A DNA stretch of 64,000 nt from an uncultured Hormoscilla sp. (GCA_963921275.4 OZ001293.3:6208001-6272000), one strand, 5' to 3'; counted from the first letter of the stretch, positions 4,634 to 46,950 are shown. Numbers and translations are program-made. The notes: generated from the sequence alone by a model not told the origin.

Positions 4634-5359
4634 ATGACTGCCCAAAGTCAACTGATCTCCGGCAAGACTGTACGGATGTCCGTGAAGCGCCGCTTCCGCA
4701 AGCTGGCGCTTCCAGCTAGACAGCAACATCTGTCCGGTCTCAACGGAGATTTTTTCAAGCGCCTGTTCGATGTCCTGTTTTCACTGTCGGTTTTGATTGT
4801 TTTTTCCCCCCTGTACCTGCTTTTGGGTCTGCTGATTGCCCTCAGTTCCCCAGGCTCAATTCTTTATGTTCAGGAACGGGTGGGGAAAAACCACAAAAAG
4901 TTTCGCTGTCTGAAGTTTAGGACAATGGTGAAAAATGCCGACAAAATGTTAGTGGAAATGATGTCAAATAATCCGCATATTAGTCAAGAATTTGAGGATT
5001 ATTTCAAACTTAAATATGACCCGAGAATTACTAAAATTGGCAGATTTTTGCGGCTGACAAGTCTAGACGAATTTCCCCAATTTTGGAATGTGTTGATGGG
5101 AGATATGAGTGTGGTGGGTCCGCGACCTTTAGTGGTACAAGAACTGCCAAAATACGGTAAGCATATCGACAAGGTTCTGACTATCCGCCCGGGAATTACT
5201 GGGTTATGGCAGGTGTCAGGGCGCAATGACCTCCCTTATCCCCGGAGAATTCAGATCGACATTTACTATGTGAATTTCAAAAATTTATGGATGGATCTGT
5301 GGATAATCGTGAAGACGATCGGGGTTGTCATTTTTCCTAAGAATAACGGTGCCTACTAA
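4634..5359 (+). CDS. Bacterial sugar transferase (initiating phosphoglycosyltransferase)
   Basis: KRLFD, KFRTM, DPRIT..GRFLR.TSLDEFPQ, GDMSVVGPRP, PGITGLWQVSGR. Confidence 0.93.
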   Translation: MTAQSQLISGKTVRMSVKRRFRKLALPARQQHLSGLNGDFFKRLFDVLFSLSVLIVFSPLYLLLGLLIALSSPGSILYVQERVGKNHKKFRCLKFRTMVKNADKMLVEMMSNNPHISQEFEDYFKLKYDPRITKIGRFLRLTSLDEFPQFWNVLMGDMSVVGPRPLVVQELPKYGKHIDKVLTIRPGITGLWQVSGRNDLPYPRRIQIDIYYVNFKNLWMDLWIIVKTIGVVIFPKNNGAY

Positions 5360-9498: not shown

Positions 9499-10719
<1,221 letters not shown>

Positions 10720-10750: not shown

Positions 10751-11585
<835 letters not shown>

Positions 11586-15072: not shown

Positions 15073-15455
15073 TAATGCCTCATTATACCAGCAATTTGCT
15101 ATAATATCAATACTGCGGTATTAGTGGTATTATTGCCCTTACTCTGTGTATTTATGCTTACTGCCATCGGCCAGCCCCTGAAACCCTCGGTTTTTCGTTG
15201 GCCCGATCGCCTTTTGGGGCCTCTTCGGGAAAACGCCCGACTAGAAGCACAAAATTTTTTTGCTACCTCCATCTGTACGGTTGACAAATTATTTTATTCA
15301 TGTTAGAGCGGTAAATTTATCCGTAAATTGGCTCAAGAACGAATATTAAGAGTATAATATATGGTGCGATTCGTTCTGATGTAAACCAGTAATGGTGAAA
15401 ATCGGGCCTGGTCTTATTTGCCAGGTAACTTTGGTGCCATGAGGGTTAAATTCCC

Positions 15456-16449
15456 GTGCGATGAGTTCCAGCCTAACGTAGTCATATACGGAACTCTGGC
15501 CTAGGAAACTAGGAACTCTGGTAATCATGGGGGTTTAATTCCCCCTCCCCAGGTACAGGGGTAACCGCGTGAGGTGCTGCGAAGTAACATCATCGTGGTG
15601 CCAAGCGAGGACTCAAATGTAGGATAACTGGCAGCCCAAGCCGGTGACTCTGCTAGGAAAGATGTCCATGGCTAGAACAAGCGAACCTATGTAAACCTCG
15701 TTAAACCCAACCAGCGAAATAAGGCTTAATGCGCTGGAACAAAAGTTAATGCAGTTAGTGTTAATTAGGGAATTGGCTAACATTGTACCCAAATAACTGC
15801 CGGGGAAAAGTAGGGGCCTAAAGGCATCGTGAAATGATACCAGGGAACGAAGTAACCTCAGCGAGAGGAACGAAGTAACCCCCGTGGTGCTGTCCTCATT
15901 TGGACAAGTCAGATGTGCGTCCGCGTAGCGTGCGCGCAGCGCATAGCGCATGCCCATGAGGGGAGAGATGGCCCGAGAAGCTAATGCCTAGGCGGTGTCT
16001 GGAGCATGCCTTGGTGTCTGGAGCACACCGAGTCCTTCAGGACAAGAGTGTGCGGAAGACGCCAAAGTCCTTCAGGACAAGAGCATGCGGAAGACGCCGG
16101 TAATGCCTATGGATACGCAGACGCGGGTCGGTGATACTAGTAAACTATTGGTACAAGTAGCTCTAAAATGTCATAAGCCCATTTACAGCGTTAGCGAAAG
16201 CGAGTTGAGGATTGAGGAATGTTTAACTGGTAAAACGGAGTGTTAAATGGTGATACTAAAGGTTATCCGGCAGCTCCACTCACCAACCAGGAAAGGGGCG
16301 GACGTGCAAGTAGTAAGGGACAATGGGAGTAATCCCTAGTAATCCTACCCGTGAAAGGGGCCTAGTACCCAGTAGCCGTGTGCGGTGAAAGTCGCATGCA
16401 CGGTTCCGAAAGGGAGGGTTGTCCCGCGAGGGACAGCTCGACCCCGACT
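15456..16449 (+). mobile_element. Inner ORF-less group II intron type C (994 nt)
   Basis: GTGCG start, intact D5 AGCCGTGTGCGGTGAAAGTCGCATGCACGGTTC, end CCCCGACT; EBS1 GGGAAT (15768-15773) complementary to upstream ATTCCC. Confidence 0.9.
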
Positions 16450-16909
16450 TCCGCCCAGATACGGGGCTGACATCGGTTCTCAGTGCTACGAAGTAACATC
16501 ATCGTGGTGCCAAGCGAGGACTCAAATGTAGGATAGCTAGTAGCCAAACTGGCAACTCCGCGCTTATTAGAGGTTCATGGTTAGAGCAGGCAAATCCCTG
16601 TAAGTATCGTTAATACTAACCGGTGTAATGGCTGACTAACACCGGCCTAAAATAGGAAAGCAGGCAGCGCCTTAGCTTTCATATGTGGCTAAGGACGTAT
16701 CCGAAAGAACTGCCGGTATATAGGGGAGACCTAAAAGCCTCGCGAAATGGCATCAAGGAACGAAGTAACCCCCACGTCGCTGTCCCCAGGGACAAGTTAG
16801 ATGTAAAGCGCAAGTAAGTGTGGGTGGGAGGGATGTCCTAAGAAGCCAACGCCCAGGGTAATGCCTGTGGATATGCAGACGTAGGACGGATATGGTAAGA
16901 AGCCTTGGG

Positions 16910-17850
16910 GTGCGAATCGTTTTGGCGTAAGTCTGAAATATGGCGATCGCCGGGCTGGTTAATACCAGCAACTCTGGTCATCATGGGTTCAATTCCCCTT
17001 CCCCCAGGTACGGGGGTGACCGCGTGAGGTGCTGCGGAGTAACATTACCGTGGTGCCTCCCGAGGACAAATGTAGGATAAGGTCTCAGCCCAGAGACCGA
17101 CGCCGCATGGCTGCGCCACGCTGCGCGATCGGAAAGAGGCTCATGGTTAGAGCAAGCGAATCCCTGTAAGCATCGTCATCTTAAACAAGCGAAAAGAGGC
17201 TGACACGCTTGGTGCAAAATGCGCACGCAGTCCGCGTATCAGTGGTTGCACGTCACTGATATCGTACCCGAAATGACTGCCGGTGTATAGGGGAGACCTA
17301 AAAGCCTCGTGAAATGATACCAGGGAACGTTCCGGACAAGAGCGGTGCTGTCCAGATGGACAAGTCAGATGTGCGTCCGCGTAGCGTGCGCGCAGCGCCT
17401 AGCGCATGCCCGCGTGGGGAGGGAGGTCCTAAGAAGCTAATGCCCGGGGTAATGCCTGTGGATATGCAGACGTAGGACGGATATGGTAAAAAGCTCTAGG
17501 AGATAGTAGCCCTCTAAACGTGCTTAACCAGTGGCAACACTAGGTAGTAATGATGGACTGAAATCCTAACCGGGTAAAAAATTTAGAGGCCCCATACGGG
17601 CACCTGTTAGTAAAGAACGGTCATAGTGGTTTTCTAGTTCTCCCCCGTAAACCTTCCGGAGTTAGGTACTCAACTAGTTCATGACTGACCATAAAGGGGC
17701 TATATTTCATAGGGCAAGGGACAACGGGAGTAATCCCTAGTAATCCTACCCGTGACAAGGGTTTACCAACCAGTAGCCGTGTGCGGTGAAAGTCGCTCTT
17801 CAGGTTCCGAATGGGAGGATTGTCCCGCGAGGGACAGCTCGACCCCGACC
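16910..17850 (+). mobile_element. Inner ORF-less group II intron type E (941 nt)
   Basis: GTGCG start, colinear with the other introns, D5/D6 at 17773-17850, end CCCCGACC. Confidence 0.87.
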
Positions 17851-18561
17851 AGAAACTAGCCTTAAAAAGTCATAGACTAAGGAGCAATCCTAAAGGATGA
17901 ATGATGGACTAAAATCCTAGCCGGGTAAAAACTCAGAACCCCGAGTAAAAAGTAAATGGGGACCATGTTAGCAAAGAGCGGCTAGTGCGGTTTGCTGGTT
18001 CTCCTCCGCGAACCTTCCGGAGCTAGGTACTAAAACGGTCTGTTGGCTAACCACAAAGGGGCAAAATCTCATGGGGCAAGGGACAACGGGGGTAACCCCT
18101 AGTAATCCTGCTGATGACAAGAGCTTACCAACCAGTAGCCGTGTGCGGTGAAAGTCGCTCTTCAGGTTCCGAAAGGGAGGGTTGGGAAGTGATTCCCAGC
18201 TCGACCCCGACCACAAAGCCTGCGAAAAAGACCAACTTTCTCTCCTCTGAGGGAAGCGCGATCGCCCAGCACAAACCCGATCGCCCCACGGGAGAAGAAA
18301 CCGGGTTTCTACTAAATTTTTATCGTCCCGAGAGGGTGTAAAAGAAACCCGGTTTCTAGCAGACACGCGATCGCCTCAAGCAAGCACCGGTGCAAACCAG
18401 CGGTTTCTGGGCGGAAAAAAATTTCCCAAAAGGGTTGACAATGGAATTCGCAGCCATTAAGATGGTAAAAAAGCGGTCGCAGGATTGCCGTACCTGGAAA
18501 ACTTCATATACGGTACTGCGCGAGCGCAGTTTAATGACACTTTTCACACCGAGGTCCCTGT

Positions 18562-22006: not shown

Positions 22007-22087
22007 GCGGATGTGGCGGAATTGGTAGACGCGCTAGACTTAGGTTCTAGTGTCTTTGACGTGAAGGTTCAAGTCCTTTCATCCGCA
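22007..22087 (+). tRNA. trnL: tRNA-Leu, anticodon TAG
   Basis: Acceptor GCGGATG/CATCCGC, D-loop TTGGTAGAC, anticodon arm CTAGA-CTTAGGT-TCTAG, long variable arm, GGTTCAAGTCC; no encoded CCA. Confidence 0.96.
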
Positions 22088-26570: not shown

Positions 26571-27651
26571 ATGTCTAAAGCAGCAGACGATTTACTGAAA
26601 CAAGGAATAGGGCAATATCAGACCGGTGACGTAGCAGCAGCATTACAGTCTTGGCAGCAAGCCCTGACCCTCTATCGGGAAGCAGACGATCGCAAACGAA
26701 CGGGGGCGGCCTTGGGCAATTTGGGGGCGGCCCATGAGGCCCTGGGAGAGCTGCCAGTCGCCCTAGATTACTATCAGCAGCATCTGGCGATCGCCCAGTC
26801 AATCTCGGACTGGCGGGGACAGGGAAATGCTCTGGAAAATATAGCTAATGTCTACCATAGTTTGGGAGAACTGTCAAGGGCAATAGACTATTATCAGCAG
26901 CGGTTGGCGATCGCCCGAGAACAGTCCGACCTTGAGGCATCCGGCAGGATATTGGGGAACCTGAGATTGACATATAAGGAGATGGGAAATGAGCAGGAGG
27001 CGATGGCCTGTTGCCGGGAACAATGGGCGATCGCGCGGCAGAGGTTTTCCGCAAAAAAAACGGGGGACTTTATGGAAATCGCGGAACAGGTAGGTTTAAA
27101 CCCGATGGAAGACTTCGCGGGGGCGGACCTGAGTGGAATCAACCTGTACTATGCTAACCTAGGCTGGGCAGATTTACGGGAAACAAATTTGAGTAATGCC
27201 GACTTTAGATTAGCAGACCTGAACAATGCGAAATTAAGTAAAGCCAATCTGAGCAATGCCAAGTTAAGTAATGCGAATCTGCGGGATGCCGACCTCAGCT
27301 ATGCAAATATGACGGGAGCAGATTTGCGGTTATCAGAACAACCACTCGCTAAACCAGGAAAGGGAAGAAAAGACAGGCGGCAAGGGCTAACGGAAGTAAT
27401 TCCTATTAAGTCTACCTATGAAAAGGGCCTAGTACCCAGTAGCCGGATGCGGTGAAAATCGCAAGTCCGGTTCCGAAAGGGAGGGTCGGGAAGCGATTCC
27501 CGGCTCGACCCCATCCAAGTTGGTGGGAACTAAACTCAAAGGGGCGTTCCTCAAGGGGGCAAATGTGGAAAAAGTGGACTTCAGAGAAACATCAGGTATT
27601 TCTCAGCAGATGAAAATTGACCTGATGGAGCGCGGGGCGATTTGTGAGTAA
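26571..27651 (+). pseudogene. TPR plus pentapeptide-repeat protein disrupted by an intron fragment
   Basis: TPR repeats, EDFAGADL, pentapeptides; native tail KLVGTKLKGAFLKGA...ERGAICE* resumes at 27517. Confidence 0.82.
27327..27516 (+). mobile_element. 5'-truncated group II intron type B (3' 190 nt, including D5-D6)
   Basis: Matches the 3' end of 45012-45882 through CCCCATCC, with a small variant just after D5. Confidence 0.9.
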
Positions 27652-31950: not shown

Positions 31951-33544
31951 GTGGGGGAAATAGATATGTACCAACCAGTGGCGCCTGCGAAGCTCCTAAC
32001 ATTTGAGGAATATCGGTTCTACCAGGGAGAACCGGATGTTCTATACGAACTATTCCGAGGAAGTTTGATCCCAATGCCAACGCCAACATCATTACATACC
32101 AGAATCTGTCATTTTCTCGTCTCTATCCTGCGGCGTCACTTTGCCAGTCAAAATCTAGCTTTAATAGCCACAGATATCACGGGAGTCAGAACAGAAGTTG
32201 ATGGTTCTCGCATTCCAGATGTCGTAGTTTGCTCGACCGAACTCTGGGAGCGATCCTGTGCCAGACCCGGTGCTGGTATTCTTGACTTTGGGGAAACGCC
32301 AACCCTAGTCATTGAAGTAAATTGGCGGGAAGACTACCTTCGCAAACGGGCTGAATATGCCTTGATCGACATTCCCGAATATTGGATAGTGGATGGGGTC
32401 GAGCCGGGAATCGCTTCCCGACCCTCCCTTGAGGAACCGGACTTGCGATTTTCACCGCATCCGGCTACTGGGTACTAGGCCCTTTTCATAGGTAGACTTA
32501 ATAGGAATTACTTCCGTTAGCCCTTGCCGCCTGTCTTTTCTTCCCTTTCCTGGTTTAGCGAGTGGTTGTTCTGATAACCGTTAGTATCACCATTTTCAAG
32601 TCAGTTTTACCAGTTATCCATACCTTATCCTCCACTTGCGTTTCGGATTAGTTCCGTGGCTTTTTAGGATTACTCATTCCAGCAGCTTCCTAGTATCACC
32701 GACCCACGTCAGCGCTGGCTACCCAGCATCATCTACATTACTGTAGATGTTATCCCAGGAATTACCCCGGGCATTCGCTTCTTGGGCCATCCCTCCCCCC
32801 GTGGCTTGCGCTTAACATCTAACTTGTCCTGATGGACAGCACACGAGAGGTTACTTCGTTCCCTAACAACATTTCGCGATACCTTTAGGTCCACACTATA
32901 CCCCGGGAGCTATTTGAGTACTATATTAGCCAGAGTCTAAAACTAATACTAGCTACCATTTCCTTTTTAGGCCAGCGCATATAGCCTTATTTCGCTGGTT
33001 CCTTATAACGAGGCTTGCACATGTTTGCCTGCTCTAACCTTGGATATCTTTCCTAGCGGCGTCACCGGCTTAGGCTGCCAGTTATCCTACATTTGAGTCC
33101 TCGCTTAGCACCACGATGATGTCGCTTCGTAGCACCGAGGACCGGTGTCACCCCCGTACCTGGGGGGAGGGGAATTTAACCCCCATGCGGTCAGAGTTCC
33201 CGGCTAATGAAACCGGGCTAGCGTTCCGTGTTTGACCACGTTAGGCTAGAACGAATCGCACAGACCCTAACAGGGAGCGCGTCTGGATCTTGAGTAATCC
33301 TGAAGGTGACGAAGGTTACGATTGGGTAGAATATCTACGAGGGGAATCCTTCAGTTCGGTGCAGTTTCCCCAACTGGTTTTATCAGTTAATACAGTCCTT
33401 GCACCTCCATTGGTCGAAAATTTAATCAGGGATGAACAAGCACAACTGCAACAGATTCAACAACAGAGAGATGCACAGCAAGAAAGGGCCGATCGGTTGG
33501 CTGCTAAATTACGGGAAATGGGATTAGACCCAGACACCATCTAG
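31951..33544 (+). pseudogene. Uma2 family protein interrupted by an antisense group II intron
   Basis: Joining 32390 to 33262 gives IPEYWIVDPNRERVWILSNPEG in frame. Confidence 0.87.
32391..33261 (-). mobile_element. ORF-less group II intron, type B copy 1 (871 nt)
   Basis: Reverse complement of 45012-45882; 5' flank AGGGTCT pairs with EBS1 loop AGACTCT. Confidence 0.93.
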
Positions 33545-44530: not shown

Positions 44531-46950
44531 ATGGAAGCAGAGGAAATAGTAAAAAGCTATGCAGCTGGAGAACGAGACTTTGGTGCAATCAAGCTGACTG
44601 AGTTGAATCTGAGTGGCGTCAATCTCAGCGAAGCCAATTTCAGCCGTGCCAACTTATCTGTAGCCAACCTCAGTGGTGCCAATCTGAGTAAATCAAACCT
44701 GTCTAACGCCAAACTGAATGTGGCCAGACTCAGCGGTTGCAATCTCACCCATGCCAACTTCAACGGAGCCATCCTGAATGTAGCTAATCTGGTGTGAGCC
44801 GATCTGACTGGTTCGACATTGGTTCAAGCTGGGTTAATTAGAGCAGTGCTCATTAGAGCCGAACTTTCTTATGTAGACCTGTCTCGCGCTAACCTGACTG
44901 GAGCAGATCTGAGAGAAGCTACCCTCAGACAAGCTAATCTGAGTGGAGCCAACTTGTCGGAGGTGGATTTAAGGGGAACTTCCCTGACGGGAGCTAACCT
45001 ACAGGGAGCCAGTGCGATTCGTTCTAGCCTAACGTGGTCAAACACGGAACGCTAGCCCGGTTTCATTAGCCGGGAACTCTGACCGCATGGGGGTTAAATT
45101 CCCCTCCCCCCAGGTACGGGGGTGACACCGGTCCTCGGTGCTACGAAGCGACATCATCGTGGTGCTAAGCGAGGACTCAAATGTAGGATAACTGGCAGCC
45201 TAAGCCGGTGACGCCGCTAGGAAAGATATCCAAGGTTAGAGCAGGCAAACATGTGCAAGCCTCGTTATAAGGAACCAGCGAAATAAGGCTATATGCGCTG
45301 GCCTAAAAAGGAAATGGTAGCTAGTATTAGTTTTAGACTCTGGCTAATATAGTACTCAAATAGCTCCCGGGGTATAGTGTGGACCTAAAGGTATCGCGAA
45401 ATGTTGTTAGGGAACGAAGTAACCTCTCGTGTGCTGTCCATCAGGACAAGTTAGATGTTAAGCGCAAGCCACGGGGGGAGGGATGGCCCAAGAAGCGAAT
45501 GCCCGGGGTAATTCCTGGGATAACATCTACAGTAATGTAGATGATGCTGGGTAGCCAGCGCTGACGTGGGTCGGTGATACTAGGAAGCTGCTGGAATGAG
45601 TAATCCTAAAAAGCCACGGAACTAATCCGAAACGCAAGTGGAGGATAAGGTATGGATAACTGGTAAAACTGACTTGAAAATGGTGATACTAACGGTTATC
45701 AGAACAACCACTCGCTAAACCAGGAAAGGGAAGAAAAGACAGGCGGCAAGGGCTAACGGAAGTAATTCCTATTAAGTCTACCTATGAAAAGGGCCTAGTA
45801 CCCAGTAGCCGGATGCGGTGAAAATCGCAAGTCCGGTTCCTCAAGGGAGGGTCGGGAAGCGATTCCCGGCTCGACCCCATCCACTTACATGGCACTGATA
45901 TGAGTCGGTCTGACATGAGCGGGGTAGACCTGAGAGAAGCGGACCTCAGACATGCCAATTTGAATCGCACTAATCTCAGTGGCGCTAACCTCAGTGGTGC
46001 TAACCTGAGATGGGTTGACCTGAGTGGAGCGAATCTCAGTTGGGCGGATCTGAGCGAGGCCAAGTTGAGCGGCACCAACTTAATTGGATCTGACTTGAGC
46101 AATGCTAACTTAGTCAATACTAGTATGGTACATGCTGACCTGACCCAGGCAAATTTGATTAAGGCAGATTGGAGCGGTGCGGTGCGACTTTAACTGGGGC
46201 AAAACTTTATGGTGTCTCGCGGTTTTGCCTGAAAACAGAAGGGATGACCTGTGAGTGGGTTGACCTCAGCCCCGATGGGGACCATTCTTATGTCTATCAT
46301 TTCACCCCAGAAGAATTTCAGCAGTTTTTCAATCCCACTCCACCTAAGGTAGAGATTGTTGTCGATGCCAGGTTGGATCACTTAGCTAGCTTGGCATTGG
46401 CTAATGCTTATTATCAAATTGCTCGGCAATACTCAGCCATGAGCAGTCCTCCCAGTATTAAAGTGGGTCACCGTCGCACCACGCTCACATTTGTCCTTGA
46501 CAGCGACGAGCATTATTTCCCATTGCCTACGTTGCCATTCTTCCCTTTAAGGATGCTGCCGCTACTCAGGGACGTCTGAGCGATTTGATGGATACGATAC
46601 GATCGCCCAGTCTGGACGAATACCTGAGGATTAAAGATCACAATCATATTATGAAAGTCAACCAGTATCTGAGTAAAATCATGGGCAAGCTAGCAAAAAT
46701 ATCACTTACCTCAAATCTGCCGACAAAATCAGTTAAATTCTTTGATGTTCCCACCCAGGTGGTGTTGACAGATTCCAGCGCTCAGATCTTAACTGTATAT
46801 CATCACCAAAATTTTGGCAAGCGTTTCTTAAATGCAGTTGCTTTGCCTAAAGATGATTCGGTAAAATATCTGAAATACTTGACATCCCCTCTGCCTACCA
46901 TGAGTCTGATAGCTGATTTTATTAAGGGTTTCTATGACATGGTAAAATAG
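44531..46950 (+). pseudogene. Long pentapeptide-repeat protein, disrupted
   Basis: YAAGERDF start; TGA at 44795; intron 45012-45882; 5-bp duplication near 46180; further frameshift near 46520. Confidence 0.85.
45012..45882 (+). mobile_element. ORF-less group II intron, type B copy 2 (871 nt)
   Basis: GTGCG start, D5 AGCCGGATGCGGTGAAAATCGCAAGTCCGGTTC; removal gives GANLQGANLHGTDM in frame. Confidence 0.93.

Follow-up and report, generated by a model that had tools for sequence, protein, structure and literature searches.

Group II introns lying within one another have been described from Thermosynechococcus elongatus, Methanosarcina acetivorans and Trichodesmium erythraeum. Here, a nest of three group II introns is described which occupies positions 15364 to 18212 of a 64,000-nt window (the whole stretch of DNA that was analysed, C1:6208001-6272000) from an uncultured Hormoscilla sp. 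(GCA_963921275.4, OZ001293.3), whose genome comprises 7.03 Mb in 7 contigs. None of the three introns has an open reading frame (ORF) for a reverse transcriptase (RT). The three-intron nest is real, and it probably arose by three separate RNA-guided insertions of ORF-less introns of group IIB1 type, with a borrowed RT and without function for the host.

According to the T. elongatus study (Mohr, Ghanem and Lambowitz 2010, PMC2882425), the ORF-less TeI3 and the TeI4 introns are of the IIB1/chloroplast-like (CL) type, as are those of the nest, and the loops with the exon-binding sites (EBS) are reprogrammed in ORF-less families. The ORF-less introns of T. elongatus are moved by RTs acting in trans; the nest introns may be likened to them, RT use being presumed in their case. 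In both organisms, a conserved site within introns serves as the homing target of one ORF-less family, and the inner copies appear to be younger. In T. elongatus, the hosts carry ORFs, the site is located in domain IV, where the ORF begins, the nests consist of two introns and 28 introns are reported, whereas here the host is ORF-less, one site lies in the domain I scaffold and about 400 introns are present. Furthermore, introns with a mispaired domain V occur in many copies here, while TeI4f, which also has a mispaired domain V, is almost immobile according to the same source.

M. acetivorans (PMC4424553, PMC2882425) shares with this locus nesting, flanks without coding capacity and repeated site-specific homing into introns. 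Copies were lost by recombination in that organism, with which a damaged second nest in the present genome may be compared. In contrast to M. acetivorans, all three members are ORF-less here and the targets are elements of RNA structure. In M. acetivorans, to judge from the title of Dai and Zimmerly (2003), homing is reported to be into related intron ORFs. In T. erythraeum, the pair T.e.I7/T.e.I8 (Pfreundt and Hess 2015, PMC4649490) is a cyanobacterial intron within an intron, the inner one being located near the 5' end of its host and spliced first. Both of these introns encode proteins, a coding gene is interrupted and splicing occurs in vivo, whereas the nest described here is read from sequence, ORF-less and intergenic. 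An expansion of CL-type introns in a filamentous cyanobacterium, as found here, is known from Arthrospira platensis (Miura et al. 2022, PMC8919778). The maximum given in that survey is 101 introns, compared with 394 bracketed introns in this genome, and its domain V cut-off of 24 bits would miss two of the three nest introns (20.0 and 23.0 bits). Introns scoring below standard search cut-offs are thus undercounted in surveys.

Taken by itself, the nest neatly exemplifies something already known. Of greater weight are an intron family that targets other introns and introns that multiplied with a damaged-looking catalytic hairpin.

Architecture of the nest

The start sequence GTGCGA is present at 15364, 15456 and 16910, and domain V/VI ends are present at 16449, 17850 and 18212, exactly where an earlier note on this DNA had placed three intron starts and three ends. 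The following arrangement was obtained.

15364-15455, plus strand: outer ORF-less group IIB intron, piece 1, from the 5' end to the domain I hairpin split by inner intron 1
15456-16449, plus strand: inner intron 1, ORF-less, 994 nt, with canonical domain V, of a family targeting the domain I hairpin of other introns
16450-16909, plus strand: outer intron, piece 2, with the remaining domain I, domains II and III and the first 22 nt of domain IV
16458-16463, plus strand: alpha loop of the outer intron, adjoining the first insertion site
16910-17850, plus strand: inner intron 2, ORF-less, 941 nt, with mispaired domain V, inserted near the base of outer domain IV
17851-18212, plus strand: outer intron, piece 3, with the remaining domain IV, domains V and VI, and the bulged A at 18204

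Complete introns are contained exactly inside another one on the same strand, the arrangement referred to as a twintron or nested intron. Inner intron 1 splits the domain I hairpin just before the alpha loop, and inner intron 2 begins 22 nt into outer domain IV. The note had further proposed that removal of 15456-16449 and 16910-17850 rebuilds one intron of 914 nt. This was confirmed by an uninterrupted twin of the rejoined outer intron at C1:2751471-2750557 (minus strand), which is 99.34% identical over 915 columns, with five substitutions and one indel. Both junctions are base-exact, and the flanks of the two copies differ. With this exact empty twin, the order in which the domain I insert and the domain IV insert are spliced becomes directly testable.

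A consensus structure with six domains, named according to established knowledge of group II introns, was built from representatives of 43 families. Of its scorable pairs, 185 of 209 are retained in the outer intron, 195 of 207 in inner intron 1 and 186 of 204 in inner intron 2. The minimum-energy fold of the rejoined outer RNA alone displays domains I to VI in the same layout, with a weak folding z-score of -1.5 (30 shuffles). The proposed reconstruction, which would have been in difficulty if the 914 nt had not folded as one six-domain intron, is therefore upheld by the consensus pairs and by the single-sequence fold. The GAGGG/CCCTC stem spanning the first junction, which had also been pointed out in the note, is real; each of its five pairs is retained by between 42 of 45 and 48 of 50 of the representatives aligned. 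The alpha/alpha-prime pairs are likewise retained, in several pair types, in 48-50 of 49-50 representatives, and the domain I tetraloop receptor is present. A scan with Rfam models for domains V/VI and I-IV was positive in part: domain V of inner intron 1 was matched above the gathering score, the outer intron and inner intron 2 remained below it, and the models of domains I to IV gave no match at E up to 5 in the three introns. The longest stop-free stretches in the three introns comprise 59, 84 and 57 codons, so that none of them encodes an RT and all are ORF-less, as had been supposed.

All three introns start with GUGYG (GTGCG in the DNA), and in each of them the bulged A of domain VI is found 9 nt from the 3' end. 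The usual 3' end AY was not found. The introns end in ACU and ACC, one base past AY, and this end is fixed by the empty twin. With this 3' end, reading frames are restored in 6 of 22 insertions of introns with a variant domain V (see below) and in 43 of 275 canonical insertions; shifting the end by one base gave 0 and 9, respectively. Throughout the genome, the 3' ends ACU, ACC and UCC extend one base beyond AY, and the bulged A is found at a distance of nine bases from the end. In both inner introns, peripheral loops contain short palindromic or duplicated insertions, at about 15915-15950, 16000-16100, 17103-17130 and 17371-17410, which we take to resemble the small dispersed repeats of cyanobacteria.

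The outer boundaries are bridged by contigs from four short-read runs, which may include the source sample; the contigs displayed covered these boundaries and not the inner junctions of the nest. Bridging was seen at about single-copy depth (63 and 78 in run X2), the left bridge being present in X2 to X4 and the right bridge in X2 and X3. Unique outer parts showed about twice the bridge depth in X2 and X4, as predicted for two copies. Hundreds of similar repeats in the genome, and displayed contigs that did not include the inner junctions, could suggest a chimera assembled from repeated introns. Such an artefact is extremely improbable in view of the base-exact junctions of the twin, the sensible pairing with the target at both inner sites, the second nest using the same two sites, and the depth ratios. 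The junction 15455|16450 detected in run X4 was considered as a splicing product and rejected, being explained by DNA of the empty twin.

Target sites and an intron-targeting family

EBS1, EBS2 and EBS3 were taken from the alignment, in which the EBS3 column covaries with the +1 exon base across families. Together with the intron-binding sites (IBS) of the targets, they are located as follows.

15351-15363, plus strand: target of the outer intron, IBS2 about 15351-15355, IBS1 15358-15363; pairs with EBS1, EBS2 and EBS3 are 6/6, 5/6 and 1/1
16613-16721, plus strand: guides of the outer intron, from the alignment, EBS2 16613-16618, EBS1 16680-16685, alpha-prime 16696-16701, EBS3 16721
15441-15455, plus strand: target of inner intron 1, IBS2 15443-15447, IBS1 15450-15455, IBS3 16450; a conserved domain I hairpin completed by 16450-16451, 12 of 13 pairs
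15704-15808, plus strand: guides of inner intron 1, from the alignment, EBS2 15704-15709, EBS1 15768-15773, EBS3 15808
16895-16909, plus strand: target of inner intron 2, IBS2 16895-16900, IBS1 16904-16909; located in the 5' strand of the stem of outer domain IV; with 9 of 13 pairs, a weaker match than at the other seven of the eight sites of the family
17179-17288, plus strand: guides of inner intron 2, from the alignment, EBS2 17179-17184, EBS1 17247-17252, EBS3 17288

EBS1-IBS1, EBS2-IBS2 and EBS3-IBS3 pairing is found for all three introns, amounting to 12 of 13 pairs for the outer intron, 12 for inner intron 1 and 9 for inner intron 2. The means of the respective families are 11.0 (2 sites), 11.25 (4 sites) and 10.75 (8 sites). 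Canonical families reach 10.4-10.6, and 5.0-5.8 pairs were obtained at 5000 random positions.

In other introns, a conserved domain I hairpin is the special target of the family of inner intron 1. While 13 of 14 starts of this type are located in this hairpin of another intron, only one is found elsewhere. Four full copies exist, the nearest differing from inner intron 1 by one substitution. In the chromosome, 334 occurrences of the hairpin motif were counted. In the inner-1 copies themselves, the hairpin has C at +1 in all 12 cases scored, a mismatch to their own EBS3, and the same C is found in 143 starts of the largest intron family. Inner intron 1 is an ORF-less intron with a conserved structural hairpin as a standing target, against which its own copies are mismatched at +1. 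A simple rule is spoken against by 78 starts of the second-largest type, where a matching hairpin site is present and none is occupied. Among five genomes of the genus, the hairpin site was found occupied in one, the other four assemblies being 93-97% complete, with repeats often unassembled.

In total, 484 candidate starts and 442 ends were detected in the chromosome, giving 394 bracketed introns (337 of the ORF-less type and 57 of the RT type) that make up 6.3% of it; 90 5' ends and 48 3' ends are left unpaired in the final catalogue. Nests of these introns number 37, of which 22 consist of two introns, 11 of three, three of four and one of five. The same layout of two sibling introns within one host is seen in another nest at C1:6622023. 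The view of the earlier note that such a nest is rare thus holds in part only. Fifteen nests of this genome contain three to five introns, and up to five nested introns are reported for M. acetivorans (PMC4424553); on the other hand, the present nest is the only intact triple, all ORF-less and all sense, among the 14 nests of ORF-less type. Four- and five-intron nests mixing RT, ORF-less and antisense introns are located at C1:6406537-6412386, 1147865-1152864, 4756093-4762604 and 6630135-6636006. Three head-to-tail copies of the largest family are found at C1:5447656-5450267, and insertion into its own domain IV is likewise seen for this family.

A damaged second copy of the nest was detected at C1:4515387 (C1:4512300-4515600), with the same outer family at a third target and a different member of the inner-1 subfamily at the same hairpin. 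A deletion runs into inner intron 2 and joins the two inner introns; behind it lie an antisense intron and an element that resembles an insertion sequence and has a duplication of 4 bases. At one site in an RT intron, the inner copies represent four haplotypes shared with free copies, and two of nine such hosts are empty. Independent re-invasion is the rule in this genome.

Mispaired domain V

The domain V hairpins of the three introns, with their scores for Rfam model RF00029, are listed here.

16374-16405, plus strand: canonical domain V of inner intron 1, 47.9 bits, fold z-score -3.28
17775-17806, plus strand: mispaired domain V of inner intron 2, 20.0 bits, fold z-score -0.49, with G.A, U.C, G.U and U.U below the bulge
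18137-18168, plus strand: mispaired domain V of the outer intron, 23.0 bits, identical to domain V of inner intron 2

Inner intron 1 alone exceeds the gathering score of 40. The scores of the outer intron and inner intron 2 are too low because their lower helix is mispaired, with one of four pairs formed below the bulge; both retain the AGC triad together with the upper helix and the GAAA loop. An AGC triad, a 2-nt bulge and a GNRA loop are thus present in all three introns, and a fully paired lower helix in inner intron 1 alone. The variant 3' strand is found in 50 of 366 ends of this type. In 24 ends the GAAA loop is replaced by UCCA, and 16 of these also have the mispaired helix. All eight full copies of inner intron 2, at eight different sites, contain the variant domain V, the nearest copy being one indel away. 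A family of 927 nt (for example C1:310702-311628) exhibits both lesions in 13 copies at 13 sites, with pairing of 11.0 of 13 compared with 5.3 at random. Six of these copies are identical, and all 16 matches to the domain IV end of this family are followed by an aberrant domain V. Such families, which have a mispaired domain V and appear to have multiplied recently, contradict the immobility expected of them. Two explanations offer themselves: the catalytic hairpin withstands much more damage than has been supposed, or it is provided in trans, as has long been proposed for the route to spliceosomal introns.

Among the variant copies, two alleles of the 3' strand and one main alternative loop dominate. 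After collapsing, 30 variant copies with diverse flanks were compared, and in all 30 of them the triad, the adjacent pair and the upper helix are unchanged; these copies were obtained by a search that demanded a near-intact triad. The analysis of invariance and association covered 191 ends, many canonical copies being left out by the filter; among these ends no column outside the loop was associated with the UCCA loop. The domain I tetraloop receptor is unchanged in seven of seven UCCA-loop representatives shown. Seven short complements of the variant strand were looked for as pairing partners within the outer intron and within inner intron 2, with no hit. A restriction site as explanation of the variant strand was rejected, because the site is not enriched (704 occurrences, 840 expected).

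The variant block is dispersed over a tree of domains I-III, a value as low being reached in 152 of 500 shuffles, whereas on a tree of domain IV it is clustered (1 of 500 shuffles), a distribution pointing to recombination. The variant strand was found in three of 251 genomes of the order, all of one genus, and in two named Hormoscilla records of metagenome-assembled genomes (MAGs), collections that overlap and are perhaps not independent. In one copy of the present genome and in the two Hormoscilla MAG records, the 5' strand forms three of four pairs with the variant 3' strand. The mispaired domain V may be a recombinant of two sound hairpins, and both lesions may go back to slipped copying during reverse transcription. 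The UCCA loop was detected in one of five genomes of the genus and in none of the metagenome contigs searched. Both domain V lesions (17775-17815 and related ends) resemble short words just downstream in some families. In the literature, searched by title and abstract, no work dealing with a mispaired domain V in natural mobile introns was found; an earlier description is possible, as it is for the 3' end one base past AY.

Origin, activity and surroundings of the nest

The arrangement would be explained by three separate insertions by retrohoming, each of them likely with an RT from RT-encoding introns of the same genome. The outer intron would have been inserted before the inner introns, which are likely later since inner intron 1 (one substitution) and inner intron 2 (one indel) are closer to their nearest copies than the outer intron is to its own (five substitutions and one indel). 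Possible helpers are indicated by 75 matches to maturase domains and 93 to RTs in the genome. One RT was checked and is closest to PDB 6me0_C (E 1e-113); this entry is presumably the TeI4h protein of T. elongatus. A CL1 lineage, which is recognised by the intron-encoded protein, is conceivable for the ORF-less nest introns. For T. elongatus, mobilisation of ORF-less introns in trans is documented in PMC2882425.

If the nest is transcribed, inner intron 1 would have to leave before the outer intron can fold, and inner intron 2 might stay in domain IV, as an ORF does. An ORF of 1.5 kb is normally carried by this domain. Domain IV is described in PMC1874635 as dispensable for splicing in vitro. 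The earlier note had expected two splicing events before the outer intron could fold. This is likely correct for inner intron 1, which interrupts domain I, and overstated for inner intron 2; because the latter sits in domain IV, only inner intron 1 probably must splice first. The joined flanks of the nest have no spanning ORF (12 + 12 codons in sense direction) and no Pfam match in overlapping frames. The nest is intergenic, and therefore no host gene depends on its splicing. It would be a by-product of an intron-saturated genome, without function for the host.

A number of observations weigh against this interpretation. Splicing, transcription and mobility of the nest introns are putative, and promoter consensus sites on the sense strand upstream are at chance level (4 sites, 4.0 expected). 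The RT introns inspected have a domain V/VI type differing from that of the nest introns. TeI4f, with a mispaired upper stem of domain V, showed little or no mobility in Escherichia coli (PMC2882425), which argues that mispairing can kill the ribozyme. The single host gene examined, a glycosyltransferase-like gene with an in-frame copy of inner intron 2 (C1:70500-73500), has further frame breaks downstream and, being broken, gives no apparent sign of splicing under selection. The invariance of the triad among variant copies is a biased count, owing to the search condition mentioned. Finally, the same weak site holds inner intron 2 in two of three outer copies, which also fits the movement of a composite. 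In that case inner intron 2 would already have resided in domain IV of the outer intron when the latter moved, and inner intron 1 alone would have been inserted separately. The two outer copies in question lie at different, well-matched targets with inner intron 2 at its weakest-pairing site, and RT introns at several sites carry the same antisense intron, which is unable to splice out. However, the nests differ at 2 of 92 outer bases compared with about one event in 599 bases of inner intron 2, which leans towards separate insertion, the numbers being small, and the two copies of inner intron 2 share no private variant in the part common to both. Composite movement is accordingly regarded as possible but rather doubtful.

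It is slightly more likely than not that domain V, despite its mispairing, still works in cis in the outer intron and in inner intron 2, its shape being held by protein; this is concluded because its families kept spreading. It is unlikely that both introns are dead, having been inserted with a normal domain V onto which the faulty block was later copied by recombination or gene conversion. The families apparently recombine freely, as the domain trees disagree, the variant hairpin folds no more stably than shuffles, and mispairing of domain V abolished the mobility of TeI4f (PMC2882425). Yet the variant is present in all eight full copies of inner intron 2 and in all 13 copies of the 927-nt family, a normal domain V being found in none of them even though canonical donors outnumber variants about sixfold, and two further genomes of the genus have this variant strand as well. 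Still less likely, the mispaired introns, including the outer intron and inner intron 2, could rely on a functional domain V that is lent to them in trans by the canonical introns, of which there are hundreds. Domain V is said to have acted in trans in vitro in work by Jarrell in 1988. Families lacking the GAAA loop with an unchanged tetraloop receptor (seven of seven shown) and no associated compensating change would be in line with such borrowing, as would the scattering of the variant block on the domain I-III tree (152/500) and its clustering on the domain IV tree (1/500). A bypassed domain V should, however, decay diversely, and yet two 3'-strand alleles and one main loop were found, with the triad kept in 30 of 30 copies. 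It seems correspondingly improbable that these ORF-less families splice and retrohome with domain V in trans, as a living bacterial step towards a shared catalytic RNA resembling small nuclear RNA.

Downstream of the nest, a PIN-domain gene is located. Between 18435 and 19174 of the window, a promoter-like site and a small ORF are followed by this gene, which is apparently interrupted by a stop near its start, resembling a toxin-antitoxin pair. The two largest families, with 72 and 143 copies, contribute additional ORF-less introns to the window, at 9750-10584, 10751-11585 and 45012-45882 on the plus strand and at about 32392-33261 on the minus strand. At 27438-27515 an intron 3' end was detected for which no 5' start was found, and positions 22007-22087 match the tRNA model of Rfam (RF00005).

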